From IMG/VR virus record IMGVR_UViG_3300017917_003742, positions 1 through 64,000 of that record: a DNA stretch of 64,000 bases, one strand, 5' to 3'. Below the pieces are notes generated by a model. That model was not told the origin of the DNA, searched no databases, and worked only from the letters and a program-made list of their open reading frames with translations. Both the position numbers and the translations under genes were made by a program. Source of the stretch: a virus. Below, in pieces: positions 5,619-47,086 of the stretch (positions are counted from its first letter, which is position 1; the number at the start of each line of letters is the position of its first letter).

Positions 5619-6098
5619 TTATTCTGCAACAACTAAACTATATCTTAAACTTTTTACAGGAGATACATAGTGTGCTGCATCATATGGAAAGTCAATATAT
5701 TGCCCTGCACTGTCAAAAATCTTTACAAGATTGTGATCAATGTCTTCGCAAACAAGACCATCCACATCTGAACTAGTCAAAGTTATTAGGTGCAGTTTTC
5801 GAATAGAATATGAATCACGGTGCGGTGCAATATAATCACCGGGTTCATATTTTTGAACTTGAATAAAATTATAAAAGTCTTTTAAGTCAGGGTCAAAATC
5901 AGCGTCACGAAAAATAGCTTCTTTTAACTCGTCTGACATGTGACAATCTTTCAGTGTTTTGAAACGACTACACACATTTGGAATAAGAGATTCATGCTTG
6001 TCAGCACCTTCTCTTGGCATAAAAAGATGATCGTGTTGTTTTACAAGATTGATTATCTCGTCAACATTTCTTATAAAATTTGGAATTGTTTTAATCAT
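5619..6098 (-). CDS. 2OG-Fe(II) oxygenase
   Basis: YEPGDYIAPHRD (HxD), distal H in AAHYVSPV, RYSLV. Confidence 0.85.
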   Translation of the reverse strand: MIKTIPNFIRNVDEIINLVKQHDHLFMPREGADKHESLIPNVCSRFKTLKDCHMSDELKEAIFRDADFDPDLKDFYNFIQVQKYEPGDYIAPHRDSYSIRKLHLITLTSSDVDGLVCEDIDHNLVKIFDSAGQYIDFPYDAAHYVSPVKSLRYSLVVAE

Positions 6099-6486
6099 AA
6101 TTATTTTTTATATATGTAAAAAATTTCAGTTCTCTATCACATAGAGGAAACCAGAATGCATTCAGTAATTCCTTTTTACCCGGTTTAACATTTCCATTAG
6201 TTATTTCATCTTCAAAAAGTTTAATCAACTCATCTTTTAAAAGACGCTTATCGTATCGTTGTTCATGAAACTCACACTTTTTTAAAATGCTTATAAAAAT
6301 ATTCATGAAATCTTTTTCAATTAAGCGATCATTAAATTCAAAGCTTAATTGAGCGTCGTTGAAACTATTAATTATTCCTGTTAAATCGTTTTTTATAAAA
6401 TTGAATAACTTTTTTGTAAAGGGAAATTTTTGTATATCATCCATTACATTTTTGCTACTCTCGTTAACCTTTTTAAAGTATGTCAT
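6091..6486 (-). CDS. small protein resembling a tail sheath (gp18) C-terminal fragment
   Basis: KKLFNFIKNDL...LSFEFNDRLIEKDFMNIFISIL matches the sheath motif RRLF..L...I....LFEFND..TR..F.N.....L (by eye). Confidence 0.5.
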   Translation of the reverse strand: MTYFKKVNESSKNVMDDIQKFPFTKKLFNFIKNDLTGIINSFNDAQLSFEFNDRLIEKDFMNIFISILKKCEFHEQRYDKRLLKDELIKLFEDEITNGNVKPGKKELLNAFWFPLCDRELKFFTYIKNNYD

Positions 6487-6979
6487 AATTTTCCCAATGT
6501 GTAAACTTACAATCGCCTTGGACCTTGTTCAAGAGAATTGCTCCAAGTTGAAATCCGCTTTGAGGAAATTCTTTTGGTGTTGGCATTGTAATTATTTCTC
6601 GTATAAAAAATCCAGAGTCCCGAACATCTTTTAATCTTGCCTTAAGAGCAAGCAAATGATTTAATGTAACAAGCGTTACAATATTATCGCTGATTTTCAT
6701 GGAATGTTCAATGCACTTACGATGCAAGCTCCAAGGAAAGTTTGTGATAATCCAATCGACCTTTTCGTTGTATTGAAAGAAATCTCGTCCCTCGTCAATC
6801 TCGCACCAATCAGGATTAACTCCAATTTGTAAAAATGCATTATAAAATGCTCCTTTTCCTCGGCAAGGGTCTAAGCACTTTTTTCCATAAGGATTGTAGT
6901 GAGTGACAATTTTCTTTGCAAGAGATTCAGGAGTGTAAACTCGATCATCGCCGCCTTTTGGAATCAGAGTTTTTTTCAC
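6473..6979 (-). CDS. N6-adenine DNA methyltransferase-like protein
   Basis: YTP, LDPCRGKGAF (motif I), DFF, IITNFPWS (variant motif IV); GTG start. Confidence 0.75.
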   Translation of the reverse strand: MKKTLIPKGGDDRVYTPESLAKKIVTHYNPYGKKCLDPCRGKGAFYNAFLQIGVNPDWCEIDEGRDFFQYNEKVDWIITNFPWSLHRKCIEHSMKISDNIVTLVTLNHLLALKARLKDVRDSGFFIREIITMPTPKEFPQSGFQLGAILLNKVQGDCKFTHWENYDIL

Positions 6980-7083
6980 GGTAAAAATTTAGAGTATTCA
7001 ATTAGTTTAGAAAAACACAGTATCAAAGAAATCAATGATACTGTGCCTAAAAATAAATGTGAATATAAATCAGCTTTGTCCAT
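6976..7083 (-). CDS. 35-aa predicted membrane peptide
   Basis: MDKADLYSHLFLGTVSLISLILCFSKLIEYSKFLP; TAATG and GTGA overlaps with both neighbours; not in the ORF track. Confidence 0.6.
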   Translation of the reverse strand: MDKADLYSHLFLGTVSLISLILCFSKLIEYSKFLP

Positions 7084-8378
7084 TAATCAAAATAGAAATA
7101 TTTGACGCTGGTAACACCTTCCTTATCGTTTACAACGAGAGCGGTTTGACGCTGACGAGAATTATAACCAGAGTTGTCTGCATGTCGGCATCCGCCTACA
7201 AGAGTTGGGAACATAAATCCTTCAACATTTGTAAGCTCATAGCTTTCGCTGTGATGTTGGTCTGCACTCAAGTAATATTTTCTTTCCACTCCTATCATTT
7301 GTTCAGGCTTTGCCATGAAAAGATTGTTGATGTAATTTTCTCTCTGTTTACCCGGTGCTGGAAGGCGATCTTTTGCAACAGATGAGTAACCGTGTTCCAT
7401 AAGGAAAAGACTGTTACCAACATTAAAAGTGATGAAACGTTTGTTTGTAATGTCAAACTTGATTCGTTTATCGCCTTTGAAATAAAGTGAAAGCATTCTT
7501 GCTAAAACATAATCACCTAATGCTGAATGGTTTCCGCTACATGCTACAACAGAAACACTGTTTGTTGAGCTTAAAATTGTTTTAACAAAATTTACAAGAG
7601 AATCAAATGCAACCTCAAGTTGTTCTTCGGCAATTGGATGCGCCTCAAGCTTTGTTCCTTTGTCGGTAAATCCTGTTAAGGTGTGAGACATGTCGCCAAG
7701 AAGAAGTAGTTTAACCTCTTTGTAACAACCCCTGCGAATTTCGGCTGCTGCTTTTCGGCCATAATCTGCAACAGTGTCTTTGGTCTTTTCAATGTTCCAT
7801 TCTTTCTGATTGTAAAGATAACGCTCATGTGCTACAAGACCATAATGCCAGTCACTAAGACCAAGAAGAAGAGTGTCCTTGCAGTCGCGTGGAGTTTGAA
7901 CTGGACGAGGCGGAACATAAGGAGGAGGTGTCCATTTTTGAAGAATCTGCTCAAACGGATCAATTTGAAGAGTCTTCATTGCACGCCATTTTTCAGCATC
8001 CTCTTGAGTTTCTTTCCAGTCACGTTTTTCAAACTTTTGAAGAATGTTAAATTTCTTAGAAGAAATTGCATCGTCAACAAGAGCTTCTTCGCTTGAGTTA
8101 CTAATAGTCTCTTCTGTGAATGGAAGAGTGTCATGTGTAATATTCATTACTTTAAGAACATGACGAATAACGTCTACTGGAATGCTCAATTTAAGTGCAA
8201 TCTCGTTTGCAGTCAAACCTCCAGCAATGCTGCTGTAAAGCTTAACAATCAAGTCAATCGAAGTTTTTGTAAAAACGAGATTTTGTCCGAATTTCTTTTC
8301 CGTGTGGAAAACGTATTTTTGAGTTGACGAATTATAAGTGTAATGCTTGTTCGTCTTGAGAGAGTTTTCTTTACTCAT
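7083..8378 (-). CDS. calcineurin-like metallophosphoesterase/nuclease with N-terminal HTH-like region
   Basis: SDWHYG, LLGDMSH, SGNH, EHG, SADQHH motifs; LTANEIALKLSIP helix-turn-helix-like. Confidence 0.8.
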   Translation of the reverse strand: MSKENSLKTNKHYTYNSSTQKYVFHTEKKFGQNLVFTKTSIDLIVKLYSSIAGGLTANEIALKLSIPVDVIRHVLKVMNITHDTLPFTEETISNSSEEALVDDAISSKKFNILQKFEKRDWKETQEDAEKWRAMKTLQIDPFEQILQKWTPPPYVPPRPVQTPRDCKDTLLLGLSDWHYGLVAHERYLYNQKEWNIEKTKDTVADYGRKAAAEIRRGCYKEVKLLLLGDMSHTLTGFTDKGTKLEAHPIAEEQLEVAFDSLVNFVKTILSSTNSVSVVACSGNHSALGDYVLARMLSLYFKGDKRIKFDITNKRFITFNVGNSLFLMEHGYSSVAKDRLPAPGKQRENYINNLFMAKPEQMIGVERKYYLSADQHHSESYELTNVEGFMFPTLVGGCRHADNSGYNSRQRQTALVVNDKEGVTSVKYFYFD

Positions 8379-8393
8379 AAGGCAATAATACTT

Positions 8394-8422
8394 AGTTTAC
8401 ACCGGAACTTTCCGGTTGTCAA
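8394..8422 (-). promoter_or_regulatory. sigma70 promoter with palindromic spacer
   Basis: TTGACA-17nt-TAAACT; spacer contains ACCGGAA-N2-TTCCGGT. Confidence 0.6.
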
Positions 8423-8423
8423 A

Positions 8424-9074
8424 CTAAATCGTTGCCGGACCTTTTGCCTGATCTAAGTTAGGAAGTAATCCTCTTGTATCACCGCTAAAGTGTTGATTGA
8501 GTAGGCGAAAAACTTCTTTGATAGTTTTCTCATTTACATCACCAATATTAATGTTGAAATTAGGGGTTCCGTGAAGAAGACAGTTAAGAATAATACGTGT
8601 CCAATAAACACGCTTACCATTATCTAATTTTTGTTCTTCTGGTAATTCCTTATTAAAATCTATGATTTTTTGAATGATGTTCTTTCCTTTAAATTCAGGG
8701 TCTTCTGTCCATTTGGATGAAACACCTTCATACTTGTCCATGGTCCATTCGATAAATCCTAATACAGGAAGAATATCTTTTGTTCTTTCAAAGTAATCAG
8801 AAATCATTTCAAAAGGAATTTCCTTTCCTTTAATCTTTAATTTTAATTTATGAACATCTTTGGAACTTGGGTTGAAATAAATTGCACGAATAGCAAGCTT
8901 GGCAAGCTCAAGTTCTTCTGGAAATCCCTCCTCTTCTTGGGGCATGATTTCGTTTTCTAAACCTTGTTCTTCGGGCGGAACATCACCTTCCGCACCTTCT
9001 GGTGGTGGAGGAGCGTCTGCCTCTTCTTGTTCAAAGAGGATGCGATGAATGTAACTTTCAAATTCTGATTTCAT
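8424..9074 (-). CDS. hypothetical protein, putative head-internal protein
   Basis: N-terminus MKSEFESYIHRILFEQ followed by an acidic Pro-rich linker. Confidence 0.65.
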   Translation of the reverse strand: MKSEFESYIHRILFEQEEADAPPPPEGAEGDVPPEEQGLENEIMPQEEEGFPEELELAKLAIRAIYFNPSSKDVHKLKLKIKGKEIPFEMISDYFERTKDILPVLGFIEWTMDKYEGVSSKWTEDPEFKGKNIIQKIIDFNKELPEEQKLDNGKRVYWTRIILNCLLHGTPNFNINIGDVNEKTIKEVFRLLNQHFSGDTRGLLPNLDQAKGPATI

Positions 9075-9075
9075 A

Positions 9076-19361: not shown

Positions 19362-20012
19362 ATGCCAGAAAAACTAGATAGGTTCTATTATAGAACCGTT
19401 AAGAAGAATTGTCTTTATTGTGGCTGTGAACTTAAATTAAATAATAATAGAGATGTGGAACGAAAAACCTTCTGCAACAGAAGTCATTCTGCATACTGGA
19501 ATAAAGATAATAGGAATTTTACTAATAACAAACCTCACAAGGAAGAGACTAAACAGAAAATCAAAAAATCTGCAAAGGCGAGAGAAAATTGGAAAGGTGA
19601 TAAAAATCCTAATTACAAAGGAAAATTAAAGAGAGGTAAACGTCTTTCTGAAAACCAAAAAGAGTTTTTACGGAAGAGAATGTTAGACGGAGGGGCTTTA
19701 GTTGCTCGAAAAGGTAATAAACGGAAAAGTTCTATTCAGATAAAAGTTGAAAATTACCTGACAAGTATAGGTATTTCTTTTATTGATGAATATAGACTCA
19801 ATAATAGATTAGTTGATATTTTTATAGAGCCTAATATAGTTATTGAATGCGATGGAAATTATTGGCACAGCTTTCCGCACATTAAACTCAAAGACGAGAA
19901 ATTGAATTCTTTTTGTCGAGAAAATAATATCGAAATAATTCGTCTTACGGAAACCCAAATAAAACAATCCGAATTTATACAAATTTTGGATAAATATTTT
20001 AATGGGAAATAA
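19362..20012 (+). CDS. putative homing endonuclease (NUMOD3 + Vsr/DUF559-like nuclease)
   Basis: CxxC/FC zinc motifs, KPHKEETKQKIK (NUMOD3), VDIF...IVIECDGNYWH, IIRLTE. Confidence 0.8.
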   Translation: MPEKLDRFYYRTVKKNCLYCGCELKLNNNRDVERKTFCNRSHSAYWNKDNRNFTNNKPHKEETKQKIKKSAKARENWKGDKNPNYKGKLKRGKRLSENQKEFLRKRMLDGGALVARKGNKRKSSIQIKVENYLTSIGISFIDEYRLNNRLVDIFIEPNIVIECDGNYWHSFPHIKLKDEKLNSFCRENNIEIIRLTETQIKQSEFIQILDKYFNGK

Positions 20013-20142: not shown

Positions 20143-20643
20143 TTAACAAACCTTTTTACTCAAATTACAAAATAAATCTTTTAAAGAGTTTTCGTCAAGA
20201 AAACTCTTTAATTTTTTAGGGTCCACAGGTGTTTTATTTTTGAGAAGCAACACTTCGTCAATAACACTACCCTCTAGTTCATTTACAAGAGCCTGATTTG
20301 GAATATCAGTTTTCTTTTTTAGGAAGAACAATTTGTTTGTAACACTTTTGAGTTTCTTACAAATTTTATTAAGAAAGTTTGTTAATTTCTCACGATCATA
20401 ATATTTGAATAGTTCGTGAGATTCAGAAAAAAAGTTGTCATGAAAAAATAACAAGTCTTTGTCGTTTGTTATTCTGTCGCCAAATCGTTTAACAAATAGG
20501 TAGAAAATTATTTTCTTTGCATTGCGATCTAGTTTAGAAAGCAACTTGTATTCGTATAAACAATCAACGATTTCTTTCTCGATAAGAAATAAGAATCGGT
20601 CTATGTTCTCAAAGCTGTATAGCATAAGATAATATAACCTCAA
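20143..20643 (-). CDS. hypothetical protein
   Basis: 166-aa ORF (start uncertain). Confidence 0.65.
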   Translation of the reverse strand: MRLYYLMLYSFENIDRFLFLIEKEIVDCLYEYKLLSKLDRNAKKIIFYLFVKRFGDRITNDKDLLFFHDNFFSESHELFKYYDREKLTNFLNKICKKLKSVTNKLFFLKKKTDIPNQALVNELEGSVIDEVLLLKNKTPVDPKKLKSFLDENSLKDLFCNLSKKVC

Positions 20644-21794
20644 CTGAACTCACATTCAAGTTCGTTTTTGAATGCTTGTTCTCCAGCCAATTTTATAAAA
20701 TCTTCTTTCCATTTTTCATCTCTATCGGGAATGTCACTCCATATTATTTTATTCTTATGAAACGTTTCGTTGTTATAAAGTTTTATAAGAATTGAATCCT
20801 CGGTTTTTGGGGTTCCTGAAATTATAAGTTTATTAGATTTTGAACTTTTTACAACAGGTAAGCACGCTTTCAAAAATTGTTCCTTATCATCTTCTTCACA
20901 AAGATCTATATTATCTAAAATTAATAAACTGTGATTTTTACCTCTTATAATATTTGTGTTTAAACTAGAAGTGCCTATTTTACTACCATTTGAGAAATAT
21001 ATAGCGTCTGATCGTTGTTCAATTATTTTAGGAAAAAGAGGATTATTAAAGAAATAACAGGTTCTTCTTAATAATTCGTTGTAATGATGTGCATTCACAC
21101 AGTTCATGGTATAAATTCCTGCGGAAAAATCTTTATTGAATAAACAACAGTGTAATGAGAATAATACGTGAAGCATAGACATTCCTGATTGACGACCTGC
21201 TATAGTTACGTTCATTTTATTTTCATTCCAGTCTTTTAATATTTCTTTTTGTTTATTATACAATTTTATAGAAGAAGACGCACCATCATGTGTGTTCCAT
21301 TTGACATGATTTTCGATAAAATAAACTATATCGTTTTTACACTTTTCATATTCATCGGATGATGAATTGTCTATAACTACTCTGTATTTTTCGATTAAAT
21401 CTTTTGGGGGACCGTTGAGACGAATGTTGATAATTCCGTTATAATAATCTTCACGAAGAATAGCATTCTCCTTTAATTGCCACATAAGTTCAAGATAGGC
21501 ACTTTCCCACTTGCATGTAGTTAATTCTAGAATTTCTCTCTTAAAGTTTTCTTTACCGTATTTCTTAAGGTCTTCTTTTAATTCATTAGAAGAACCATAG
21601 TATTTCTTCCAGTCGCTTTCTTTGACCACGCGACGACTTCTAGTTTTACCTTTTAGTGGAGGTCTTTTCTGATTGCTCCAGAATTGTTTTTTACCGATAT
21701 ACTTTTTACCATTAGACAGACAAGTGATACGATAAACAAAGCCAAACCACTCACTAATATCTTCTGGAACATTTTCCCAAGAGTTTTCATTCAT
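20640..21794 (-). CDS. GIY-YIG nuclease fused to a degenerate large-terminase (gp17) ATPase domain
   Basis: FGFVYRIT..NGKKYIGKK; then KCKNDIVYFIENHVK, LYNKQKEIL, GRQSGMS, IRGKNHSLLILDN, ISGTP, WSDIPDRDEKW...FKNELECEF. Confidence 0.8.
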   Translation of the reverse strand: MNENSWENVPEDISEWFGFVYRITCLSNGKKYIGKKQFWSNQKRPPLKGKTRSRRVVKESDWKKYYGSSNELKEDLKKYGKENFKREILELTTCKWESAYLELMWQLKENAILREDYYNGIINIRLNGPPKDLIEKYRVVIDNSSSDEYEKCKNDIVYFIENHVKWNTHDGASSSIKLYNKQKEILKDWNENKMNVTIAGRQSGMSMLHVLFSLHCCLFNKDFSAGIYTMNCVNAHHYNELLRRTCYFFNNPLFPKIIEQRSDAIYFSNGSKIGTSSLNTNIIRGKNHSLLILDNIDLCEEDDKEQFLKACLPVVKSSKSNKLIISGTPKTEDSILIKLYNNETFHKNKIIWSDIPDRDEKWKEDFIKLAGEQAFKNELECEFS

Positions 21795-22041: not shown

Positions 22042-22446
22042 ATGAACGAAGAACCTATGGATTTACTAGAGAAATACTCTAAGGAAATAGAAATGGACAC
22101 CAGTATTGATGTTACAAACATTATGGAAAAGCAACTTTCTTGCCCTAATGTTAAACATAAATGGCTTTTCAGATTAATGAAAGCCAAGAAACATCTTATT
22201 GATTTGGTGGAACTTAAAGATAATTTTGTTAACAACATAATGAACAAAGATAATCCTTTAAAGTTGAGCAAAGCAGTTATTGCAAACAAGCTCGAAACTC
22301 AAGGAGATTATAAAGAATTACAGAAAAGAATAAAAGAGCAAGAGATTCTTGTAGAATATCTTGATAGCAGTGTGAATAAAATTTTTAGTCAGATGGGATT
22401 TGACTTTAAAAATCTTGTTGAATTGATGAAAATGGAGCAATTATGA
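22042..22446 (+). CDS. uvsY: UvsY-like recombination mediator
   Basis: Helical 134 aa, ends ...GFDFKNLVELMK; position before uvsW as in T4-like phages. Confidence 0.65.
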   Translation: MNEEPMDLLEKYSKEIEMDTSIDVTNIMEKQLSCPNVKHKWLFRLMKAKKHLIDLVELKDNFVNNIMNKDNPLKLSKAVIANKLETQGDYKELQKRIKEQEILVEYLDSSVNKIFSQMGFDFKNLVELMKMEQL

Positions 22447-23099
22447 TGAATTATTCTAATGCACTACGCGAACAAGAAATAATTAAAAATAGACACGATA
22501 GTTATTTTGATGATTTATGGGAAGTTATTAATGGGCGAGCATCCACTCCTGTAAAAGATTATGAAAAAAGGCTTGCAGATTCTATAATGAATGAATCTAA
22601 TAAACAGATGAACACTACTGAATGTAAAACTATATCCGCAGTAAATTATTTTCCTTCCGATAATTTTTACGACAAGATGTTCACTAACTCTTTTGAATCA
22701 GATGTGAAACTTTTATCGAATTTTGAAGCAACAACAAATCTGTGTCTTTCTGGAACAATTGAAAATATCAACTACTCTTATCAGACTCTTTGGCCGAAAA
22801 AGGATACTTCTCAGAAGAAAGTATATAAAAACTTTAATATTGATGATTTTAAGTATAGAGACGTTGCAAAGAGAAATATAAAAGCTGTTTTCCAAAAAAG
22901 AAAAATAAAAAACAAAGAAGAATGTATATATATTGTTGATAATCTTTCACCAGAAGGTGTAGAAATTTTTATTAAAAAATATGTTAATAGAGAAATAAAA
23001 TGCTCTATACTAAAAATGTTGAGAAAGCTAGAAGCTTCTGATTGTACTTTTAATACACAAGATTGTGTATTTGAAAAATGGCAGAAGACATCAGAGTAA
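22443..23099 (+). CDS. hypothetical protein resembling a degenerate N-terminal half of major capsid gp23
   Basis: LWEVING..PVKDYEKRLADSIMNE; SGTIENINYSY; VAKRNIKAVF; REIKCSIL in gp23 order (by eye). Confidence 0.35.
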   Translation: MMNYSNALREQEIIKNRHDSYFDDLWEVINGRASTPVKDYEKRLADSIMNESNKQMNTTECKTISAVNYFPSDNFYDKMFTNSFESDVKLLSNFEATTNLCLSGTIENINYSYQTLWPKKDTSQKKVYKNFNIDDFKYRDVAKRNIKAVFQKRKIKNKEECIYIVDNLSPEGVEIFIKKYVNREIKCSILKMLRKLEASDCTFNTQDCVFEKWQKTSE

Positions 23100-24502
23100 C
23101 ATACGATAAGAAGAGTGGATATTTAAAATGTTCACCTAACGTTTTTAAACTGGTAAGAGAAAAGTTCTCTATAAAGAATCCATCTTATCAATCTAGGAAG
23201 TTTGTTCCTAGATTATATTCTATCACGCCTGCGGGTGCGTTTCAGGTAGGAATGTGGAACGAGATTGAACATTATATTCGTTCTCTTAACATTCCTGTTA
23301 AAATAACATTATCAGACGAGTTTAAAAATCAATTTAATCCCCAAACAAACATCAAGGAAATTTCTAAGATTGATGGATTCACTTATTATGATTATCAAGA
23401 GGATACACTAAACGAGTTTATCAAGAATGGTAGAGGTATATCACTTGTTGCTACTGGTGGCGGTAAAGCACTGATTGCAGGTGGCTTGTGTAAAACATTC
23501 CTCGATCACTATCCTCATTTCAAGATATTAATCATTGTTCCAAACGTGTCGTTGTTAAATCAACTTTACTATTCTTTCCTAGATGAATTTGGAATAAGTT
23601 GTATATCTCGTTGGGGAGATGGTAAGCTTCCTGATTTATCTCAAAATATTCTCATTGCTAACTCTCAAATCTTAACAAGTGACATCAAAGCAACACTAGC
23701 TGTTGTCGGGAATTATGATGTTGTAATTGTTGATGAAGTTCATACCATTAACGAGAAGAAAAACAAAATCAGCAAAGTGGTTCATAATATAACCACACCT
23801 TTCAAGTTTGGACTTACAGGAACACTACCAGATAGTCTTATGGCAAGCTGGAATGTTATTGGCAAGATTGGTCCTATTGTTTATGAGAAGACTTCTTATG
23901 AATTACGTAAACAAGGCACTATTACAGATGTCAAAATCAAAATGGTTTTATGTCAACATGAACGTGTGCCTGTGTTTCTAACTGGTCCAAATCCAACTGA
24001 CAAATATAACGCAGAATACGATTATGTTATAAACTACGCTCCAAGAAACGATGTTATTAAAAAGCTTTGTGACAAGCTTGTAGGAAACACATTGATTGTT
24101 GTGGACAGATTGGATTATATCTCAGTCTTGAAAAAATTATTAGAGGGTGGAGACAAAAAGATTTTCGTTATCACAGGCGAGACTCCAACAAGTGAGAGAA
24201 CAGAAATCCAGAACACTATGGACAAAGAAGATGGAATCATTTGTATTGCCATGAGCAAATGCTTTTCCACTGGTATTTCGATTAAGAATCTTCATTATGC
24301 AATTTTTGCATACATGGGAAAAGGTGGTGTTAAAACAGTTCAAACCATTGGCCGAACTGTTCGTAAACACAGTAGCAAAGAAGTAGCTGTGATTTTTGAC
24401 ATAGCTGACAACTTAGAATACTCTCGTAAACATGCAAAAGAAAGACTCCAAATATACAAAGAGCAAAAAATTGAGTATTCTATTACAAAAATAAAAATTT
24501 AA
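23078..24502 (+). CDS. uvsW: UvsW-like SF2 DNA helicase
   Basis: YDYQ, ATGGGK, IVDEVH, GLTGT, FSTGISIKNL, QTIGR. Confidence 0.9.
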   Translation: MAEDIRVTYDKKSGYLKCSPNVFKLVREKFSIKNPSYQSRKFVPRLYSITPAGAFQVGMWNEIEHYIRSLNIPVKITLSDEFKNQFNPQTNIKEISKIDGFTYYDYQEDTLNEFIKNGRGISLVATGGGKALIAGGLCKTFLDHYPHFKILIIVPNVSLLNQLYYSFLDEFGISCISRWGDGKLPDLSQNILIANSQILTSDIKATLAVVGNYDVVIVDEVHTINEKKNKISKVVHNITTPFKFGLTGTLPDSLMASWNVIGKIGPIVYEKTSYELRKQGTITDVKIKMVLCQHERVPVFLTGPNPTDKYNAEYDYVINYAPRNDVIKKLCDKLVGNTLIVVDRLDYISVLKKLLEGGDKKIFVITGETPTSERTEIQNTMDKEDGIICIAMSKCFSTGISIKNLHYAIFAYMGKGGVKTVQTIGRTVRKHSSKEVAVIFDIADNLEYSRKHAKERLQIYKEQKIEYSITKIKI

Positions 24503-24503: not shown

Positions 24504-25235
24504 ATGTGGGAAACTGACACTGATGATATTGAACCCGAAGAAGAACTTTCTGAAATAGATGTTCTTGATGAAAAGCCTCGTAAAAGAACACGCCGAACAA
24601 AGGCTGAAAAAGAAACTGAGGAATATGTTTCTAAAGAAGAGATGTGGAATGAACTATACAATTATTACATTTCTCTTGGAGAAGATTATGATTGGGAAAA
24701 TCAAAAGCTTCTTAAGAAAGATTCTTACCCCAAAATTTCAAATCGCTTAACAACCATTGTTAGTGATATTGCAACAAAAATGGGATACCGTGGAAACTTT
24801 TGCTCATATTCTTGGATTGACGAAATGATTGGTGATGCCACACTTAAAATGGTTAAAGCTGTTCGTGACTGCTCATTCAAGTGCTATACAATTGCCGAGA
24901 TAATTTCTAAAACAGAAGATAACGGAACCGTATTTATCAGCTTTATTGATAAAAAAGGCGAAGCTCAGAAAAAGCAACTTGAAGAATCCGATACATTCTT
25001 TTTTGAAGATGGCAAGGAATATATCAAGTTTAAAGCAAATCCTTTTGGATACTTTTCTCGAATAACAAGTCATTCTTATCTTAATCGCATTAAAAAAGAA
25101 AAGTTATTAGAAGAGACAAAAAGAAATTTTCAAGCTGAAACTTGGGATCGTCTTTACTCTGATGAAAACTTTCGTAATGTTCGTCGTCCGAAATATATTG
25201 AAAACGACGATAATGATGGTATATTTGAGGAATGA
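24504..25235 (+). CDS. 55: late transcription sigma factor gp55
   Basis: YVSKEE, IATKMGYRGNFCSYSWIDEMIGDA, NPFGYFSRI...NRIKKEK; synteny uvsW-55-47. Confidence 0.85.
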   Translation: MWETDTDDIEPEEELSEIDVLDEKPRKRTRRTKAEKETEEYVSKEEMWNELYNYYISLGEDYDWENQKLLKKDSYPKISNRLTTIVSDIATKMGYRGNFCSYSWIDEMIGDATLKMVKAVRDCSFKCYTIAEIISKTEDNGTVFISFIDKKGEAQKKQLEESDTFFFEDGKEYIKFKANPFGYFSRITSHSYLNRIKKEKLLEETKRNFQAETWDRLYSDENFRNVRRPKYIENDDNDGIFEE

Positions 25236-25549
25236 GAAAAAAGATAGCAGACAGATTATACAAATTATACGGTGGTGATTTTAGACATTTTCCAAAGGGT
25301 TTACGAATGTTCCTTTGGAAAATGTTTGGGCATGATTACCGATTTTATCCACATGATAGAATGTATTTTCCAAAAATAGGAAAATATGAATATTCGGATT
25401 TAATAAATGTGGAAGATGAATGGTTTGTTTATAAGACATGGGTTCCGCATCTTTGGCCTGAATTATCAACAGAAGAAATTTGTAATGCTCGACTCATGAG
25501 CGGTCCTGTTAGTCTAAAGTTTCAATTAAATTACACTTATGAAGAGTAA
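25232..25549 (+). CDS. small protein with gp23 Gol-region-like C-terminus
   Basis: LWPELSTEEICNARLMSGPVSLKFQLNYTY resembles gp23 IPNLIAFDICGVQPMNSPTGQVFALRAVY. Confidence 0.45.
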   Translation: MRKKIADRLYKLYGGDFRHFPKGLRMFLWKMFGHDYRFYPHDRMYFPKIGKYEYSDLINVEDEWFVYKTWVPHLWPELSTEEICNARLMSGPVSLKFQLNYTYEE

Positions 25550-26306
25550 AGAAATTATAGAACAAAAAAACAAAGATAAAATAGATAGACTTTTATTAGA
25601 GATAGAAGTCTCACCTATTAACGAAACGGTCAATATCGACTATGTTATTAATCTCTGTTATATAACAAAAAATACTATTAAAAAATATATAAAGGATAAA
25701 AAGTTAGAATGTTTATGGGTTGATAACGAACCTGTTTTTTTACGAACACATCTTTTGAATTTTTTAAAAAATAATTATATAAAAGTTAGGACCGAATCTA
25801 AAATGTTAAAAGCTAGTATAGCTGGAAGTTCTATTTATGAAGGGAAGACCTGTGAAATCTGTAAAACCAAATCTAGATATATTTCTAATAGTAGTTGTGT
25901 TGATTGTTCTACGAGAAAAGGTATTATTAAGCTGAACGACCAAGAGCTTATGAAACAATATAGAACTCCTGAAAAAGTTAAACAATATACGAAAAAATAT
26001 CGAAGTTTAGGAAAACATAGATGTTCTCCCTCTAATTCTAAAGTTAGTAAATTTAATCACAATTTAATCAAAAATTACAATATAGATGCATCTATGTATA
26101 ATAAATTACTAACTGAACAAAATAATGTCTGTGCTATATGTAAACGCTGTTGCGTATCAGGGAGACGTTTAGCAGTAGATCATGATCATAAAACTGGAAA
26201 GGTTCGTGGATTGCTGTGCGGTAGATGTAATACGGGATTAGGTAATTTTACTGATTCCATTGAATTTTTAGAAGAAGCTATAAAATATTTAAAACATGAA
26301 AAATAA
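25539..26306 (+). CDS. Endonuclease VII-type HNH homing endonuclease with N-terminal HTH/Zn ribbon
   Basis: QNNVCAIC, LAVDHDHKTGKVRGLLCGRCNTGLG. Confidence 0.85.
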   Translation: MKSKEIIEQKNKDKIDRLLLEIEVSPINETVNIDYVINLCYITKNTIKKYIKDKKLECLWVDNEPVFLRTHLLNFLKNNYIKVRTESKMLKASIAGSSIYEGKTCEICKTKSRYISNSSCVDCSTRKGIIKLNDQELMKQYRTPEKVKQYTKKYRSLGKHRCSPSNSKVSKFNHNLIKNYNIDASMYNKLLTEQNNVCAICKRCCVSGRRLAVDHDHKTGKVRGLLCGRCNTGLGNFTDSIEFLEEAIKYLKHEK

Positions 26307-27309
26307 TCTTATCCTGTGCGTTGGAGACATACACTTAGGAGTTAATAAGAATAATCCGTTGTTCTTTAAAACTGCATTACGTTATGCAGACTGGATTAAT
26401 TCTGTTTGTCAAAAAAACAACATAAAAACAATTGTTCAGCTTGGTGACATATTTCATAATCGGGAAATGATTCACCTTCCTGCTATAAATTGTGCATACG
26501 AGTTTTTCGATAAACTCAAAGATTATGATTTGCATATAATTTCTGGAAACCATGACTGCTTACTGAATAATACTAGTGATGTTAACTCTCTTAAACTGTT
26601 AAAGCAATGGCCTAACATCACTGTTCATGAAAAAGTTTCTGTGATAGACGAGATTTGTTTTTGTGGATGGGGAACCAAAATCGAAGATATTCCGAAAAAC
26701 AACAAAATTATTTTTGGTCACTTTGACATTAAAGGATTTGAAATGAGTTCTTTTAAAATTAGTGAACACGGCTTTTCTGCATCTGATCTTATGAGCCGTT
26801 GCAGTTTGCTTATGAGTGGTCACTATCACAAGCCACAAGTGCGTTTTTACGACAAGAAACCTCTTGTTTATACTGGCAGTGCATATCAGCTTAATTGGGG
26901 AGAAAGTGGTGAGGATAAATATGCATACATTCTCGACACCGAGACATTACAATACAGGCTTTTAGAAAATAAAATTAGTCCTCGCTTTCAGTATATAAGA
27001 AAGCCAGAAGATTATGACAAAGTTGAAAATAACTTTGTTTCAATCGAAGTTGAAAATGTTGAAGATGTTCCAAATGCAGTTGCAAAGCTTTCTGCACTCA
27101 AAGCACTGGATATTAAAACAACGCAAAAACCCCTTGAGTATAAACGCGAAATTTCTCTTGAGAATGGCGATGTTGTGACATTTGAGGAAAACGCATCGTC
27201 TGTTCTTGAGTGTATCGAAGAATACGCATCTCTTCTAGAAAATATAACAGACGAGGAAAAGAAAATTGTTGCAGAAAAGCTCAATGACCTTTATAGTCGC
27301 TGTGTATGA
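26296..27309 (+). CDS. 47: recombination endonuclease subunit gp47 (Mre11/SbcD-like)
   Basis: GDIHLG, QLGDIFH, GNHD, FGHF, SGHYH, YTGS. Confidence 0.9.
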   Translation: MKNNLILCVGDIHLGVNKNNPLFFKTALRYADWINSVCQKNNIKTIVQLGDIFHNREMIHLPAINCAYEFFDKLKDYDLHIISGNHDCLLNNTSDVNSLKLLKQWPNITVHEKVSVIDEICFCGWGTKIEDIPKNNKIIFGHFDIKGFEMSSFKISEHGFSASDLMSRCSLLMSGHYHKPQVRFYDKKPLVYTGSAYQLNWGESGEDKYAYILDTETLQYRLLENKISPRFQYIRKPEDYDKVENNFVSIEVENVEDVPNAVAKLSALKALDIKTTQKPLEYKREISLENGDVVTFEENASSVLECIEEYASLLENITDEEKKIVAEKLNDLYSRCV

Positions 27310-27866
27310 GTGCTGAAAAACAAAGACGCTGGTTTCCAATCAATTTTGAAAAGATCAAGGGAATTCCTATTAATTCCCATCCCGGTGCATTTGGTTGTGC
27401 TCGTAAATACAACTTTCACGAAGGAGTTGATCTTTATGGCGAACCGGGTGATTGGGTGTATGCTATACGTGATGGTGTAGTAATTTCCAACATGGGTTTT
27501 ACAGGACCAAAGGAAGGACACTCTTGGTGGTTAGAAACTAATGCAGTTCTTGTAAAAGATGAAGAAGGTTATTATGTTTATGGAGAACTTTTTTCACATC
27601 TAAAAGCTGGTGACAAAGTTCTTGCAGGAGATAAAATTGGAGAACTCACACCAGTTCTTCCTCCGCATAAAAAGCGAGTTGACATTCCCGGTCATTCTGT
27701 TACAATGTTACATCTTGAGCGTTGGAGTCTCGCTTATGACGAGGTTGGCGGATGGAGTGCATGGCAAACCAGAGAAAGCCGCCCAAATTATCTCTTGGAC
27801 CCAACACAGGAACTCATTCAAATTTTAAAAGATAAAAAAAGACCATTAACATTTTTAACACTATGA
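27306..27866 (+). CDS. M23 family peptidase
   Basis: HEGVDL, VYAIRDGVV, GDKV.AGDKIG, MLHLE. Confidence 0.75.
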   Translation: MSAEKQRRWFPINFEKIKGIPINSHPGAFGCARKYNFHEGVDLYGEPGDWVYAIRDGVVISNMGFTGPKEGHSWWLETNAVLVKDEEGYYVYGELFSHLKAGDKVLAGDKIGELTPVLPPHKKRVDIPGHSVTMLHLERWSLAYDEVGGWSAWQTRESRPNYLLDPTQELIQILKDKKRPLTFLTL

Positions 27867-28063
27867 CTAATGAACTAACAGACCGTGAATTTGCTTGCTT
27901 GTTATGGAACACGATGTATCCTGAAAGACGCCCATTTGGACAAATTTCAGACAGCGCAAAGGACGAGTGGGAAAAACTCGCAAGAATAGCAAAAGGTATT
28001 GCCAAATTAGAAGGCATAGATTGCATGGCAGAAATCAAAGAAATCTTAAAACCACAACTATAA
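27863..28063 (+). CDS. hypothetical protein
   Basis: 66-aa ORF with ATGA coupling. Confidence 0.6.
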   Translation: MTNELTDREFACLLWNTMYPERRPFGQISDSAKDEWEKLARIAKGIAKLEGIDCMAEIKEILKPQL

Positions 28064-28064
28064 T

Positions 28065-28718
28065 ATGAAAATTTTAATTACTAGTGGAGGAACCGATGTT
28101 CCTATTGACGATGTTCGTAAAATCTCTAACATGAGTTCAGGAAAATATGGTGCCGAAATTGCAACTGTATTACATGATAATTTTTTTAATGAACATGATA
28201 TTTGGTACTTAGGGAAAAAAGGTGGAGTGTTCCCTAATCCAGAGATAGATTTACATTTTCAAGGTAAAAAATATTTAGGTAATTTAATATTTTCTAATTA
28301 TGAAGAATATAAAGAGAATAGCATAATAGCAGCGGCAAAGATTTCACCTGACATAATTATTTCCGCAGCAGCGGTTTCCGATTACATCTTGGATAAAACA
28401 GAAGGTAAAATTTCTAGTGACAATGATGAACTTGTTATTCGCTTGAAGAAAGCTCCGAAGATTTTACCTTTGCTTCGTGAAGCGGCTCCAAATGCGCTTC
28501 TGGTAGGCTTTAAACTGCTTGTAAGTCCATCCAAGGATGAGATTGACAGTGCCGTTCAAAAGGTGTTTAAAAACGGCGCAGATTTGGTCGTGTATAACGA
28601 CTTAACAGAGATTCGCAAAGGTAATCTCATACGCTATGTTTTTACTCCTACCATGAGTTTCACTATTGCAAGAGACGCCAAAGAATTAGTAGACATAATC
28701 CTCAATTATAAGAAATGA
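28065..28718 (+). CDS. coaB: phosphopantothenate--cysteine ligase (CoaB-like)
   Basis: ILITSGGT..PIDDVRKISNMSSGKYG, AAAVSDY, GKISS, PKIL, LVGFKL, VYND. Confidence 0.9.
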   Translation: MKILITSGGTDVPIDDVRKISNMSSGKYGAEIATVLHDNFFNEHDIWYLGKKGGVFPNPEIDLHFQGKKYLGNLIFSNYEEYKENSIIAAAKISPDIIISAAAVSDYILDKTEGKISSDNDELVIRLKKAPKILPLLREAAPNALLVGFKLLVSPSKDEIDSAVQKVFKNGADLVVYNDLTEIRKGNLIRYVFTPTMSFTIARDAKELVDIILNYKK

Positions 28719-29227
28719 AAGTGTTACACGGTTTAACAGGAAGTGTCGCAACTGTTCTGAATGATAAAATTCGACAATCTTATAATTTAGTATCATTTGA
28801 TACAAAATTTATTGCAACTAACAATTCCTTTCAAATATCTAGTGTAGGAGAAGCTTATACAGATAGTAGCGAATGGTTCGTTTATAGAGAAGAGAAAAAA
28901 GTTCTTCATATCGAACTTGTTAAGTGGGCAGATGTTTTTGTCATTGCACCACTCTCTGCTAACACTCTCGCAAAAATTGCAAATGGAATTTGTGACAACT
29001 TGCTCACATGTGTCGCAAGAGCGTGGGATTTCGAGAAACCTTTCATTGTTGCTCCCGCCATGAATACAAAAATGTGGACTCATCCAATAACAGAAGAGCA
29101 TGTTAAAAAACTTCGTTCATGGGGAATATCTGTTTTAGAACCTGTTGAGAAAACTCTTTATTGTGGTGACACAGGAATAGGAGCAATGACAAATATTGAA
29201 AACATTATTAGAGCAATAAAAATATGA
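28715..29227 (+). CDS. coaC: phosphopantothenoylcysteine decarboxylase (HFCD flavoprotein, PPCDC/Hal3-type)
   Basis: GLTGSVA, VLHIEL.KWAD, APLSANTLAKIANGICDNLLTC, PAMNTKMW, LYCGDTGIGAM. Confidence 0.9.
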   Translation: MKVLHGLTGSVATVLNDKIRQSYNLVSFDTKFIATNNSFQISSVGEAYTDSSEWFVYREEKKVLHIELVKWADVFVIAPLSANTLAKIANGICDNLLTCVARAWDFEKPFIVAPAMNTKMWTHPITEEHVKKLRSWGISVLEPVEKTLYCGDTGIGAMTNIENIIRAIKI

Positions 29228-29520
29228 CAGAAGACCTTAAAAAATATTTAGAAACTCTTAAAAAACAAAATAGTCCAGAAAATCAAGACTATATTAAAGC
29301 GGTTGAGCTAGGATTAACTGGAAAAGATCGTTGGAGTGAAGGAATTCCCCATCATCCAATGTCAGAACGATTAATGAAGTTTCTAGCAAAACACGACTTC
29401 ATTGATTATGACGATTATTTCTGTTGGAAAATGGGAGGAGACGGAGATAACGGTGAAACTCTTATGTATCAAATGGATGCCTTTTTTGAAACTCTTGATA
29501 TTGAGAAAAAGAGTAGTTAA
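29224..29520 (+). CDS. hypothetical protein
   Basis: 98-aa ORF with YFCWKMGGDGDNGE motif. Confidence 0.7.
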   Translation: MTEDLKKYLETLKKQNSPENQDYIKAVELGLTGKDRWSEGIPHHPMSERLMKFLAKHDFIDYDDYFCWKMGGDGDNGETLMYQMDAFFETLDIEKKSS

Positions 29521-29528
29521 ATAACTAC

Positions 29529-29978
29529 ATGGAAAAAGATTTAACATTAGATGATCTTAAAAACGCCATTGAAGAAATGGGATATTATGTTTCGGAAATA
29601 CGTCCAAAAGGACCGTGTTGGGTTATTTTTGGAAAGGTGTTTTATGAAGGAAAGTTACGATTTGAAAAAACTGCCATCGAGTGCCGAACACATAAAGTGA
29701 AAAATATAGACCAGTTCAAATTTGATATTATAACAGACTATAAAGATATTTGGGAAGAAAATAATATCAATCCCATATTTAGTTTATACACTCTTGAAAA
29801 AATACAAGATGAACAATCAGGAGAATCTTTATATGCTGTAAGATATGCGATTACAGATCATTTATATAAAGGAGCGAAAGAAATAACAATCGAAGAAGCG
29901 AAAGAAATATTGAAAACTCGCAGAGACGATGTTTCAATGGAATTTTATCAAGATTTGAAGAACATTTACGAATTGTAA
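29529..29978 (+). CDS. small protein resembling condensed gp23 (HK97-fold) motifs
   Basis: RPKGPCWVIF...Y, LRFEKTAIECRTHKVK, IQDEQSGESLYAVRYAI in gp23 order. Confidence 0.4.
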   Translation: MEKDLTLDDLKNAIEEMGYYVSEIRPKGPCWVIFGKVFYEGKLRFEKTAIECRTHKVKNIDQFKFDIITDYKDIWEENNINPIFSLYTLEKIQDEQSGESLYAVRYAITDHLYKGAKEITIEEAKEILKTRRDDVSMEFYQDLKNIYEL

Positions 29979-30031
29979 TCTATAAAATACTTGAAAAATT
30001 CTTAAACGGGTGATAAAGTATCTATACAAAA

Positions 30032-30892
30032 ATGTCAAAATTTAATCATTTCAAAGAAAAAACCGCAGTCGCAATCATCACCTGTAACCGTGAAGAATTC
30101 CTCCATCAAGCAGTAGAAAGCATAGATCGTGAAGCTGTAGGAGAAATTTTCGTTGTTAATGCTGGTGGTCATCTTAAAAAAAGACCCGAAGGCGTTAAAA
30201 TTGTTCAGTGTAACCGAAATCCTACCGTTGTAGGAATTGCTAAGAATATTGCTCTTCGTGAAATGAAAAAGAGTGGATACGAGTTTTTATTCTTAATGGA
30301 AGATGATGTTAAAGTTAAAGATAATAATGTTTTCTTGAAGTATATTGAAACCGCAATGGACAGTGGACTTTGGGCAGGCCAGCTTTCTTATGGTGTTCAC
30401 GGAGGCGTAGGAGGCGGAAACGTAGCTCCTGACGGAACTCCCCTAAAAAGACTCACTGTTCAATACACACATCATAAAGTAGATTTATATCGCAACAGCT
30501 TTCAAGCATTCACACTTTATCATGCAAACGTTTTAAATCAGATTGGATATTTCGCAGAAAACTATCTTAATGCAGCAGAACATTTAGATCATTACTACAC
30601 TGCATACCTAAAAGGTCTTGGATGTAATTACTGGTATTTCCCTGACATTGAAAATTCATTTGAGTATCTTGAAGACATTGATGCAAATCACAGCAACTCT
30701 GTAATTCGAAATTCCAAAGATTTTACAACCAACTTTTCAACAAGTTGGGGACTGTTCAAAGATAAATTCAATTGTTATCCTCACGAAGTCACGGATTCTT
30801 CTGTTGAAGAAGTGAACGAAAGATTAAATCTTATCGAACAAAACTATTCTCAAAAATCTTTACTAGAGTCTCCCGTTGACAGCGAACAATAA
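30032..30892 (+). CDS. GT-A (GT2-like) glycosyltransferase
   Basis: AIITCNRE, GIAKNIAL, LFLMEDD, IGYF.ENY.NAAEHLD. Confidence 0.8.
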   Translation: MSKFNHFKEKTAVAIITCNREEFLHQAVESIDREAVGEIFVVNAGGHLKKRPEGVKIVQCNRNPTVVGIAKNIALREMKKSGYEFLFLMEDDVKVKDNNVFLKYIETAMDSGLWAGQLSYGVHGGVGGGNVAPDGTPLKRLTVQYTHHKVDLYRNSFQAFTLYHANVLNQIGYFAENYLNAAEHLDHYYTAYLKGLGCNYWYFPDIENSFEYLEDIDANHSNSVIRNSKDFTTNFSTSWGLFKDKFNCYPHEVTDSSVEEVNERLNLIEQNYSQKSLLESPVDSEQ

Positions 30893-42214: not shown

Positions 42215-42234
42215 GGCATTTTTAAATATTTGAA

Positions 42235-43587: not shown

Positions 43588-43592
43588 GAACT

Positions 43593-46175: not shown

Positions 46176-46425
46176 AACAAAAAGGTTTTACCATATCATA
46201 TTTGACGAGAGAGACATTGAAGAAATACGAAAAGATTACTTTGAGGAACGTTGGATTTCAAAAGAAGAATTAATTCGTTTATTTGAATACGAAGAACAAC
46301 AATTTATAGAACACTACAAGAATCTTCAAAAAGATTACAATGATATGCTTTCGTATTTTAATATGAATGCATTGTCGAATTATACACTTTTAGAAAGAAA
46401 ATACCAAGGAAGTTTAAAAAAATAA
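46144..46425 (+). CDS. hypothetical protein
   Basis: ORF overlapping the end of gp43; ATG at 46144. Confidence 0.55.
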   Translation: MKSRWKTFLDKTKRFYHIIFDERDIEEIRKDYFEERWISKEELIRLFEYEEQQFIEHYKNLQKDYNDMLSYFNMNALSNYTLLERKYQGSLKK

Positions 46426-46470
46426 CTCTTTTCTCTTGAAAACACACGTTTCTCTGTGTTAATACTTTAT

Positions 46471-46839
46471 ATGGAAGAAAAAGTAATAGGAATTCTTAAA
46501 AACGTCAGCGAGCTTATCGTTGCAACTCTTGTCGAAGAAACAGACACCGCCGTAAAGGTTAAAAATCCTGCATTCTTAGGAATCGCTGGTCAAAATAATC
46601 AAATCAATATCAATTTCATTCCCTTGGAAATGCTCAGTCTTCAACCCTCTGTGAATGTTAGAAACCTTCTTGCAAATCCAGCCGAAGAATTGATTTATAC
46701 ATTTGATAAGAACAGTGTTCTCAAATCCGACTTGGTTCTTGCACAAAACGTCATTGACAACTACAAGAATCTAACAACAGCAAAACCTGCTCCAACAACT
46801 GCAAAAACCGCAGAAGAAAACGTCGTAAAACTTTACTAA
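46471..46839 (+). CDS. small beta-rich (Sm-like) protein
   Basis: ELIVATLVEE...VKVKNPA...FIP...VIDNYK pattern of T4-like Sm-fold proteins; ATG at 46471. Confidence 0.55.
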   Translation: MEEKVIGILKNVSELIVATLVEETDTAVKVKNPAFLGIAGQNNQININFIPLEMLSLQPSVNVRNLLANPAEELIYTFDKNSVLKSDLVLAQNVIDNYKNLTTAKPAPTTAKTAEENVVKLY

Positions 46840-46843
46840 TTAT

Positions 46844-47086
46844 ATGAAACCAGAAGAACAAAATCAAAAAAATTCAGAGCTAAATACGCTCATGACAATC
46901 TTAAATAGTTATAATCAACTACCTGTTGATTTTTGCCTAAAAGAATTTTTAGGTTGGGATGACACAAAAATTAAAACCTTTAACAAAGAACGTAAAAAGA
47001 CAAAAAGAAATATTCTAAAAGAATATAACAAAATGTCTAAAGCTATTTCATCCGATTCTTGTTGCGGAACCTCCTGTCAAGGATAA
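46844..47086 (+). CDS. small protein resembling portal (gp20) C-terminal segment
   Basis: LPVDFCLKEFLGWDDTKIKTFNKERKK resembles portal S...[20 protein letters not shown]. Confidence 0.4.
   Translation: MKPEEQNQKNSELNTLMTILNSYNQLPVDFCLKEFLGWDDTKIKTFNKERKKTKRNILKEYNKMSKAISSDSCCGTSCQG

Follow-up and report, generated by a model that had tools for sequence, protein, structure and literature searches.

Does a phage keep, away from its virion genes, a set of fragments of its own sheath, terminase, capsid and portal proteins, and what might such fragments do? The question is raised by six small open reading frames (ORFs) scattered between positions 6091 and 47086 of a 64,000-nucleotide stretch of viral DNA (hereafter the window), which constitutes the first 64 kb of the 75,159-bp IMG/VR contig IMGVR_UViG_3300017917_003742. 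A sequence-only reading had taken these ORFs for diverged pieces of the sheath protein gp18, the large terminase (TerL) gp17, the major capsid protein (MCP) gp23 (three pieces) and the portal protein gp20, located outside the structural module and acting together as a decoy system. All six frames are open between the coordinates given below, and their position outside the structural module is true in a trivial sense, since the window holds no such module. Judged by sequence and profile comparisons, two of the six are solid virion-protein fragments (TerL in 20640-21794 and the Gol segment of the MCP in 25232-25549), one is probable (portal, 46844-47086) and three are unsupported. We favor, with a probability of roughly 45%, the explanation that the terminase-, capsid- and portal-like ORFs are three real, separate genes, each retaining the most conserved interaction segment of a virion protein, which were exapted as partner-binding mimics.

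Source of the sequence and comparison sets

The DNA is a piece of a T4-like jumbo phage, distantly related to T4, with a GC content of ~34% in the window; the completeness of the contig was estimated at 29% (CheckV), and a megablast comparison of the region with GenBank phages gave no match. The window is occupied by a replication/recombination module. No capsid, portal, sheath or complete terminase gene was found in the 75-kb record, which also contains zero matches to the portal family PF07230. The virion proteins of two relatives stood in for the phage's own, and identities to virion parents refer to these proteins: (i) G001 (89.9 kb; locus label L006), whose neighboring genes are 60-86% identical to those of the window, and (ii) G002 (236 kb), with an estimated completeness of 100%.

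When the six ORFs were compared by BLASTP with the real gp17, gp18, gp20, gp23 and gp24 of T4 (AF158101), only 20640-21794 was detected and all other proposed pairs had E > 1; at this level the by-eye likeness to T4 is not statistically detectable apart from that ORF. BLASTP against T4 is too insensitive for short motifs, and Pfam and PHROGs searches returned nothing for five of the six ORFs. The use of lineage-specific structural proteins and of profile-profile comparison altered this picture. In an hhalign matrix, in which each ORF or ORF family was compared with alignments of MCP, portal, sheath and TerL, the terminase piece and the capsid piece at 25232-25549 were recovered, the portal piece was recovered moderately, and the sheath piece and the capsid pieces at 22443 and 29529 were not (off-target cells, P 0.07-0.88). 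An unbiased screen of 247 small ORFs of the record against 115 large ORFs of G001 and G002 recovered, of the six, only the match of 25232 to the MCP, and produced one new case, a truncated HNH endonuclease at 19362-20012.

A dead terminase ATPase domain joined to a GIY-YIG nuclease

The terminase-like locus comprises the following features:

20640-21794, minus strand: 384-residue protein, a SegE-type GIY-YIG nuclease joined to a catalytically dead TerL ATPase domain
21420-21767, minus strand: GIY-YIG catalytic domain (residues 10-125; Pfam match at residues 10-122)
20643-21359, minus strand: pseudo-TerL ATPase domain (residues ~146-384), ending at ELECEFS
20143-20625, minus strand: conserved 160-residue partner ORF, directly downstream of the nuclease gene

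The proposal that 20640-21794 carries a gp17 ATPase with dead Walker motifs was confirmed with respect to both homology and motif loss. BLASTP aligned the protein with residues 108-288 of T4 gp17 (E 1.6e-20) and with T4 SegE (E 1.3e-7), and profile searches detected SegE_GIY-YIG (PF19835; 3.5e-36, profile positions 10-123 of 123), Terminase_6N (9e-8) and phrog_5989 (3.5e-36). The pseudo-TerL domain aligns with TerL at an hhalign P of 1.9e-40 and shares 27-34% identity with the TerLs of cyanophages, Caulobacter phage Cr30 and T4. Its fold is the ASCE/RecA-like ATPase fold of the Terminase_6N type: the best PDB matches found by Foldseek for an AlphaFold2 (AF2) model of the fusion, whose GIY-YIG half is poorly modelled, were the T4 gp17 ATPase structures 2O0H and 2O0J (2O0H: E 3.3e-19 over 260 columns).

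In the window copy, Walker A reads RQSGMS and Walker B reads LLILDN, and the C-motif SGT is retained. All eight pseudo-TerLs have RQ(S/T)G[MLIV]S at Walker A, with Met, Leu, Ile or Val in place of the Lys, whereas RQxGK(S/T) is found in the four real TerLs whose Walker A is uninterrupted (in G002 the motif is broken by an intein after GK). Walker B is D-N-I-D in the six aligned members (family A1) and D-N-M-D in L087, compared with D-E in TerLs; the Glu is thus replaced by Asn in all seven pseudo-TerLs whose Walker B was read.

Since this ORF is the sole Terminase_6N match in the 75-kb record, and split, intein-invaded TerLs exist in the lineage, it could be regarded as the functional large terminase of the phage, or as one half of a split terminase, that an endonuclease insertion has rearranged. 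We give this practically no credence. Every family member has other residues in place of the Walker A Lys and the catalytic Glu, and the RNase H-like nuclease domain of TerL is absent, the ORF stopping at the ATPase/nuclease boundary and being followed by the conserved and unrelated 160-residue protein. Furthermore, G001 has a normal TerL of 572 residues, only ~30% identical to pseudo-TerL, in addition to a short nuclease gene, and the record in which the ORF is the sole match is only 29% complete.

The two halves of the fusion differ in their evolution. In the GIY-YIG domain the Y/Y/R/E/N-bearing positions are invariant in family A1, and the ratio of nonsynonymous to synonymous substitution rates (dN/dS) calculated against a close relative, L005, is 0.03, which means strong purifying selection on the nuclease. 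Among four lineages this domain is 88-94% identical and the pseudo-TerL domain 35-49% identical. From the 245-codon pseudo-TerL frame, which is open in eight sequences only 32-49% identical, we infer that this domain is also under purifying selection.

The fused form occurs in this phage and in its full-length relatives (P0001-P0005 and L004), while in L087 pseudo-TerL is a separate 249-residue ORF between the nuclease gene and the following gene. An IMG/VR scan with the pseudo-TerL domain alone returned no relatives, and the metagenome scan enlarged the set by L087 only. The domain is cleanly absent in L005, L006 and G002. In L005 and L006 the nuclease ORF ends at residue ~140 and the next gene follows directly, i.e., a clean indel of ~735 nt, whose flanks in L005 are 92-96% identical to those of the window.

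The short form of the nuclease is the norm, as ~85 relatives of the nuclease domain are ORFs of 120-160 residues consisting of the catalytic domain alone. A domain search detected no NUMOD, helix-turn-helix or zinc-finger DNA-binding domain on the nuclease ORF. The partner ORF (20143-20625), 92% identical to its counterpart in L005 (5510-5992), has no Pfam or PHROG match; its homologues lie directly downstream of a GIY-YIG ORF in 24 loci, and in 21 of the 24 the pair is located beside uvsY/uvsW (~0.3-1.3 kb from uvsY and 0.7-3.8 kb from uvsW).

We observed that a stand-alone GIY-YIG ORF (120-160 residues) followed by a conserved ORF of ~160-200 residues forms a two-gene module in many T4-like environmental phages, where its place beside uvsY/uvsW is fixed. 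One possibility is a split homing endonuclease, another a domesticated nuclease system; by position and sequence the module is the counterpart of T4 segE. T4 SegE resembles the window nuclease in its SegE_GIY-YIG domain and its uvsW/uvsY neighborhood. It differs in being a single protein of 205 residues with its own C-terminal DNA-binding region; in the window type the nuclease is usually accompanied by the separate 160-residue ORF, and in this clade it is extended by pseudo-TerL.

In the explanation that we favor, a paralogue of the TerL ATPase whose Walker A and B motifs are dead was inserted between the nuclease and 160-residue genes in a small clade. Pseudo-TerL would serve as a non-hydrolyzing adaptor or specificity module of the SegE-like nuclease; it would bind DNA or packaging components and help to target rival genomes, in homing or marker exclusion. 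The TerL piece, being part of a GIY-YIG nuclease module, is not a free decoy. This nuclease-linked, ATP-dead terminase domain is a clean case of a virion enzyme turned into a pseudoenzyme module.

A stand-alone copy of the capsid Gol region

The capsid-like locus comprises:

25232-25549, plus strand: 105-residue Gol-like protein, whose start overlaps the gp55 stop and whose end overlaps the start of an endonuclease VII-like gene
25433-25546, plus strand: Gol-region-like C-terminal segment (residues 68-105), copying the best-conserved stretch of gp23

The assignment of 25232-25549 to gp23 was borne out for its last 38 residues (hhalign P 3.7e-8 to the MCP), which share 46% identity over 41 residues with positions 134-174 of the G001 gp23 (E 1e-6) and 48% identity over 31 residues with the G002 MCP. 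The segment is homologous to the part of gp23 around T4 residues 99-131 and matches the most conserved 30-residue window of the gp23 alignment (T4 residues 99-128). The full HK97 fold (~400-540 residues) is not present in this 105-residue protein.

Five homologues, 63-88% identical, constitute with it family A3. A search of 15,331 ORFs from all fetched loci with the A3 profile hidden Markov model (HMM) ranked the seven gp23 homologues in that set above everything else apart from the family itself, each matching at profile positions 68-104, and residues 102-131 of T4 gp23 came next. The E-values were 1e-5 to 1e-6 for the lineage's own MCP, 0.04-0.09 for other T4-like MCPs and 1.2 for T4. In the reverse search, the MCP profile selected 25232-25549 as the best match in the phage's own record. 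The A3 consensus, ...ICN(A/V)QPMSGPVGLSFQLNYTYE, is nearer to the capsid motif than the window copy, which has RL where the homologues keep QP; the replacement of VQP seen in the window is accordingly a property of that copy, the homologues having (A/V)QP.

At codon positions 1, 2 and 3 the Gol segment and g23 are 61, 65 and 42% identical, respectively. The similarity is an old one, residing at the protein level, and recent gene conversion from g23 was rejected, since third codon positions are only 42% identical. The start codon overlaps the stop codon of gp55 as ATGA, with GAGG just before it. The order of genes is gp55, Gol-like gene and gp47 in L005, while in G001 gp55 is followed directly by gp47. 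Compared with L005, dN/dS of 25232-25549 is 0.36 overall, 0.20 in the N-terminal part and ~0.9 in the C-terminal segment. Purifying selection was thereby found, among the ORFs under study, for the GIY-YIG domain, for 25232-25549 and for the portal-like ORF described below. In an AF2 model of the Gol-like protein, two N-terminal helices are predicted with moderate confidence and the tail is left unmodelled.

Gol is the most conserved region of gp23 and binds domains II/III of EF-Tu, and it has been suggested that the gp23 proteins of T4-related phages interact with the EF-Tu of their respective hosts (PMC3014915). In T4 it is the EF-Tu-binding cofactor of the e14 Lit protease. The last 38 residues of 25232-25549 are homologous to the same segment. 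Unlike gp23, the Gol-like protein is a free protein of 105 residues with an unrelated two-helix N-terminal region and with RL for QP. It would be co-produced with the late sigma factor gp55, and its tail would most likely bind whatever the capsid Gol hairpin binds, which in T4 is EF-Tu domains II/III. A conserved stand-alone copy offers a direct handle on why Gol is the most conserved part of T4-type capsids and on EF-Tu binding across hosts.

A portal-like helix between the DNA polymerase and UvsX genes

The portal-like locus comprises:

46844-47086, plus strand: 80-residue protein, Cys-rich at its tail, encoded between the genes for DNA polymerase and UvsX
46889-46978, plus strand: segment resembling the portal C-terminal helix (residues 16-45), motif F.LK.FLGW.D..IK

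For 46844-47086, proposed as a gp20 C-terminus, a likeness to one portal helix is probable, and it extends over 25-30 residues (hhalign P 1.2e-4). The nine members of the family share ...LPVDFCLKEFLGWDDSKIKTF..., a sequence that can be aligned with the C-terminal helix conserved in T4-like portals (...RF.LK.(Y/F)LG(L/W)TE.E(I/M)...). Seven homologues (P0026-P0031 and L172) are 74-86% identical to the window copy, and the syntenic ORF of G001 (49076-49318), where the order is polymerase, 101-residue ORF, 127-residue ORF, portal-like gene and UvsX, is 36% identical. With the addition of family members and then of the lineage's own portal, that of G002 (carrying ...FAQKRYLGWSDVDIKA...), the hhalign P to the portal fell from 2.5e-3 through 1.4e-3 to 1.2e-4. 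When columns were shuffled as a control, the observed score was attained once in 200 shuffles. The portal HMM ranked 46844-47086 first in its own record and the G001 homologue second in G001, and a BLASTP search of 46844-47086 against the 1,898 ORFs of G002 had the portal on top. The dN/dS value is 0.23. The portal fold (wing, stem and clip) is not present in a protein of only 80 residues. Taken as a similarity between sequences, the match to the portal is probably real, if unproven, and the helix might bind the partner of the portal C-terminal helix.

Three ORFs without virion similarity

The remaining three ORFs, for which no virion-protein similarity was detectable in these comparisons, are:

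6091-6486, minus strand: orphan ORF of 131 residues
22443-23099, plus strand: conserved hypothetical protein of 218 residues, between uvsY and uvsW
29529-29978, plus strand: orphan ORF of 149 residues in an accessory island

The assignment of 6091-6486 to the gp18 C-terminus found no support (hhalign P 0.36 to sheath; BLASTP E > 10 to T4 gp18); the ORF was not listed at E < 50 in a sheath HMM search, and it has no Pfam match, only chance-level PHROG matches (E at least 0.07), no IMG/VR relatives and, in the ESM Atlas, only helical matches with a low template-modelling (TM) score. It is flanked, within 5619-6979 (minus strand), by a small endonuclease-like ORF (phrog_2297) and a 168-residue fragment that resembles the N-terminal portion of an N6 DNA methyltransferase; this region may be a decayed restriction-modification or homing cassette.

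Neither of the other two could be retained as a gp23 piece. For 22443-23099 the hhalign P to the MCP was 0.48 (0.19 with a five-sequence profile), and an exhaustive HMMER search yielded four short relatives and one spurious repetitive protein, none of them capsid-like. Its relatives (P0032-P0035 and L005 3646-4077) share only the C-terminal ~90 residues, an IMG/VR scan returned none, and it is a lineage-specific gene. For 29529-29978 the hhalign P to the MCP was 0.064 over 14 columns and the MCP HMM gave E 4.2. The sole capsid resemblance is a 9-residue motif (RYAITDHLY compared with RYGVIDHLF) of a kind expected several times by chance; an IMG/VR scan found no relatives, and the ESM Atlas showed a weak, sub-threshold lean to PD-(D/E)XK nucleases (0.80-0.83). 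The ORF lies in an accessory island (27306-30017) that includes a 186-residue ORF and orphan ORFs, which is missing from G001, where gp47 is directly followed by a homologue of 30032-30892.

Genes or recombination debris

The virion genes of this lineage carry a heavy load of selfish elements (inteins and homing endonucleases). The real TerL gene of G002 (G002 130831-135128 = L182:10831-15128) is apparently interrupted by three inteins: (i) intein 1 after the Walker A GK, split by a 429-residue ORF with zinc-finger and endonuclease-like features, (ii) intein 2 after Walker B and (iii) intein 3 at EFEC, the ATPase/nuclease boundary. The site of intein 3 is the exact end point of pseudo-TerL. 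In G001 a 516-residue HNH homing endonuclease is encoded directly after g23 (L167:10587-12137), and in Agrobacterium phage Atu_ph04 an unannotated GIY-YIG-like ORF lies immediately upstream of TerL. One such element is located beside the nuclease module of the window:

19362-20012, plus strand: truncated HNH homing-endonuclease fragment (phrog_559)

This fragment matches phrog_559 at 1.3e-9 (profile positions 214-411 of 607) and shares 36% identity over 85 residues with the 516-residue HNH endonuclease of G001.

Homing endonucleases aim at the most conserved parts of essential genes, and break repair therefore plausibly copies such segments elsewhere. In the favored explanation the three fragments would be side products of recombination that endonucleases and inteins drove within the conserved cores of g17, g23 and g20, a recombinational origin suggested by the genetic context, and would afterwards have been retained as partner-binding mimics. 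Even without a decoy role, this would mean that phage genomes rich in endonucleases and inteins reuse parts of essential genes to make small new ones.

The same surroundings, rich in endonucleases and inteins, would be expected if the fragments were non-functional debris of homing-endonuclease or intein activity and illegitimate recombination. In relatives, both pseudo-TerL and the Gol-like gene have been lost cleanly; this loss, the coincidence of the pseudo-TerL boundary with an intein site and the relaxed dN/dS in the Gol segment of the window copy point in this direction. We nevertheless hold debris to be decidedly improbable, considering that long frames stay open in AT-rich DNA across members that are 32-88% identical, that the motif skeletons are invariant (RQxG, DNID and SGT; QPMSGPVGL; FLGW.D..IK), that the two small proteins have overall dN/dS values of 0.23-0.36, and that 25232-25549 is translationally coupled to gp55.

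The explanation by retained partner-binding mimics builds on the homology, the dead motifs, the conservation, the presence/absence polymorphism, the synteny and the endonuclease/intein context described above. Several points weigh against it. Its binding functions, every one of them, including binding to EF-Tu, DNA or packaging proteins, are what we infer from these data. Pseudo-TerL was lost repeatedly in close relatives and is thus dispensable, and its fast divergence fits relaxed constraint and a fast-evolving specificity module equally well. The window copy of the Gol motif has lost QP, and with a dN/dS near 0.9 in its C-terminal segment the motif of this copy may be relaxing. The AF2 model of the Gol-like protein is poor (predicted local distance difference test, pLDDT, 53; below 45 in the C-terminal segment) and unfit for structure search. 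In L005 the Gol-like gene does not adjoin an endonuclease, so that the support for its proposed recombinational origin is circumstantial. The portal likeness spans only 25-30 residues at P ~1e-4, in an ORF pre-selected by eye.

Decoys, anti-defense mimics and known systems

The proposal of the sequence-only reading was that six early, non-activating mimics saturate bacterial sensors (Avs, Lit and CapRel) as a coordinated system. Three of the ORFs do mimic segments that are recognized by known sensors: the ATPase domain of TerL is by itself enough to activate Avs2 and Upx (PMC13601566), Avs7 and Avs8 are sensors of the MCP, and Lit makes use of Gol. Dead Walker motifs would also suit a non-functional look-alike. 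We nevertheless regard the coordinated system as very unlikely. Three of its six members have no detectable virion-protein similarity, and the three real ones do not co-occur in close relatives, so a functionally linked six-member arsenal finds no support: L005 has the Gol-like gene and lacks pseudo-TerL, and G001 has the portal-like gene and lacks both the others. The three fragments are independent genes, separately gained and lost among close relatives. The TerL piece, moreover, is tied to a nuclease under strong purifying selection. EF-Tu is far too plentiful to be titrated by a minor protein. For STAND (signal transduction ATPases with numerous domains) sensors, target binding induces oligomerization and activation, and the TerL-like T4 paralogue Vs.8 was toxic, not protective, in combination with EcAvs2 (PMC13601566).

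The toxicity of Vs.8 with EcAvs2 means both that a precedent exists and that look-alikes may trigger rather than block a sensor. Like pseudo-TerL, Vs.8 duplicates the terminase ATPase fold without a nuclease domain, and its gene lies away from the packaging genes of its T4-like phage. It differs in keeping Walker A GKS and Walker B DE, and is a stand-alone protein of 219 residues without a nuclease link. The pseudo-TerL family aligned with Vs.8 only marginally (hhalign P 0.028), the match being centered on the common GRQSG motif, and searches of the record, G001 and G002 revealed no homologue of Vs.8.

The Gol-like protein and pseudo-TerL might also act independently as anti-defense mimics, each a decoy or blocker by itself: the former against Lit-like proteases or MCP sensors that use EF-Tu, the latter against sensors of the Avs2/Upx type. 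Each could be cargo beside mobile endonuclease genes. We place this possibility on the unlikely side. It agrees with the Gol-like motif being closest to the lineage's own MCP, with the coupling to gp55, by which the Gol-like protein is probably made before the capsid protein, with the absence from pseudo-TerL of the ATP-binding Lys that contributes to the Avs2 interface, and with both genes being accessory, variable and fast-evolving, as is usual for anti-defense genes. It is opposed by the expectation that an EF-Tu-binding Gol look-alike would activate Lit rather than block it, unless altered, and by the fusion of pseudo-TerL to a nuclease that appears active.

MCP sensors that incorporate EF-Tu exist, and bacterial sensors recognize just the parts copied here, i.e., the terminase ATPase domain, the capsid Gol/EF-Tu interface and the portal. 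In a specific form that we judge unlikely, a free Gol mimic, made with gp55 and ahead of the capsid, would occupy EF-Tu, or a sensor of the Lit/Avs7 type by which the interface of capsid Gol with EF-Tu is read, without licensing cell suicide, and the dead TerL would blunt terminase sensing of the Avs2/Upx type; if this were true, the two would be the first phage anti-defense proteins built from homologous fragments of the sensed triggers. A conceptual parallel is DSAD1, which competes with the tail tube protein trigger at DSR2 (PMC11087589). As the candidates would do, this small phage protein fills the sensor's binding site for a virion protein. To our knowledge, DSAD1 is not a sequence fragment of its trigger, unlike the candidates of the window, which are true homologous fragments.

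Neighboring genes

The replication/recombination module in which the three fragment genes are embedded contains:

22042-22446: UvsY
23078-24502: UvsW-type helicase (474 residues)
24504-25235: late sigma factor gp55
25539-26306, plus strand: endonuclease VII-like gene (255 residues), with an additional N-terminal part of ~100 residues
43593-46175: gp43 DNA polymerase
elsewhere in the window: Dda-like helicase
elsewhere in the window: gp47/SbcD and gp46/SbcC
elsewhere in the window: UvsX, gp41 helicase and gp32 single-stranded DNA-binding protein

The endonuclease VII-like gene is missing at the matching position in both L005 and G001, and has the character of an insert separating gp55 (or the Gol-like gene) from gp47. 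The possibility that the Gol-like gene travels with it was rejected, since L005 contains the Gol-like gene only.

The T4 late-promoter consensus TATAAATA occurs at 2 sites in the whole window, compared with 5.4 expected by chance, and was dropped as an uninformative clue to timing. The phage probably relies on a late promoter unlike that of T4, despite its gp55-like sigma factor.

In G001 the UvsW-type helicase (L006:5751-8318, minus strand) has 855 residues, compared with 474 in the window, and appears to hold an intein after the Walker A GAGK.

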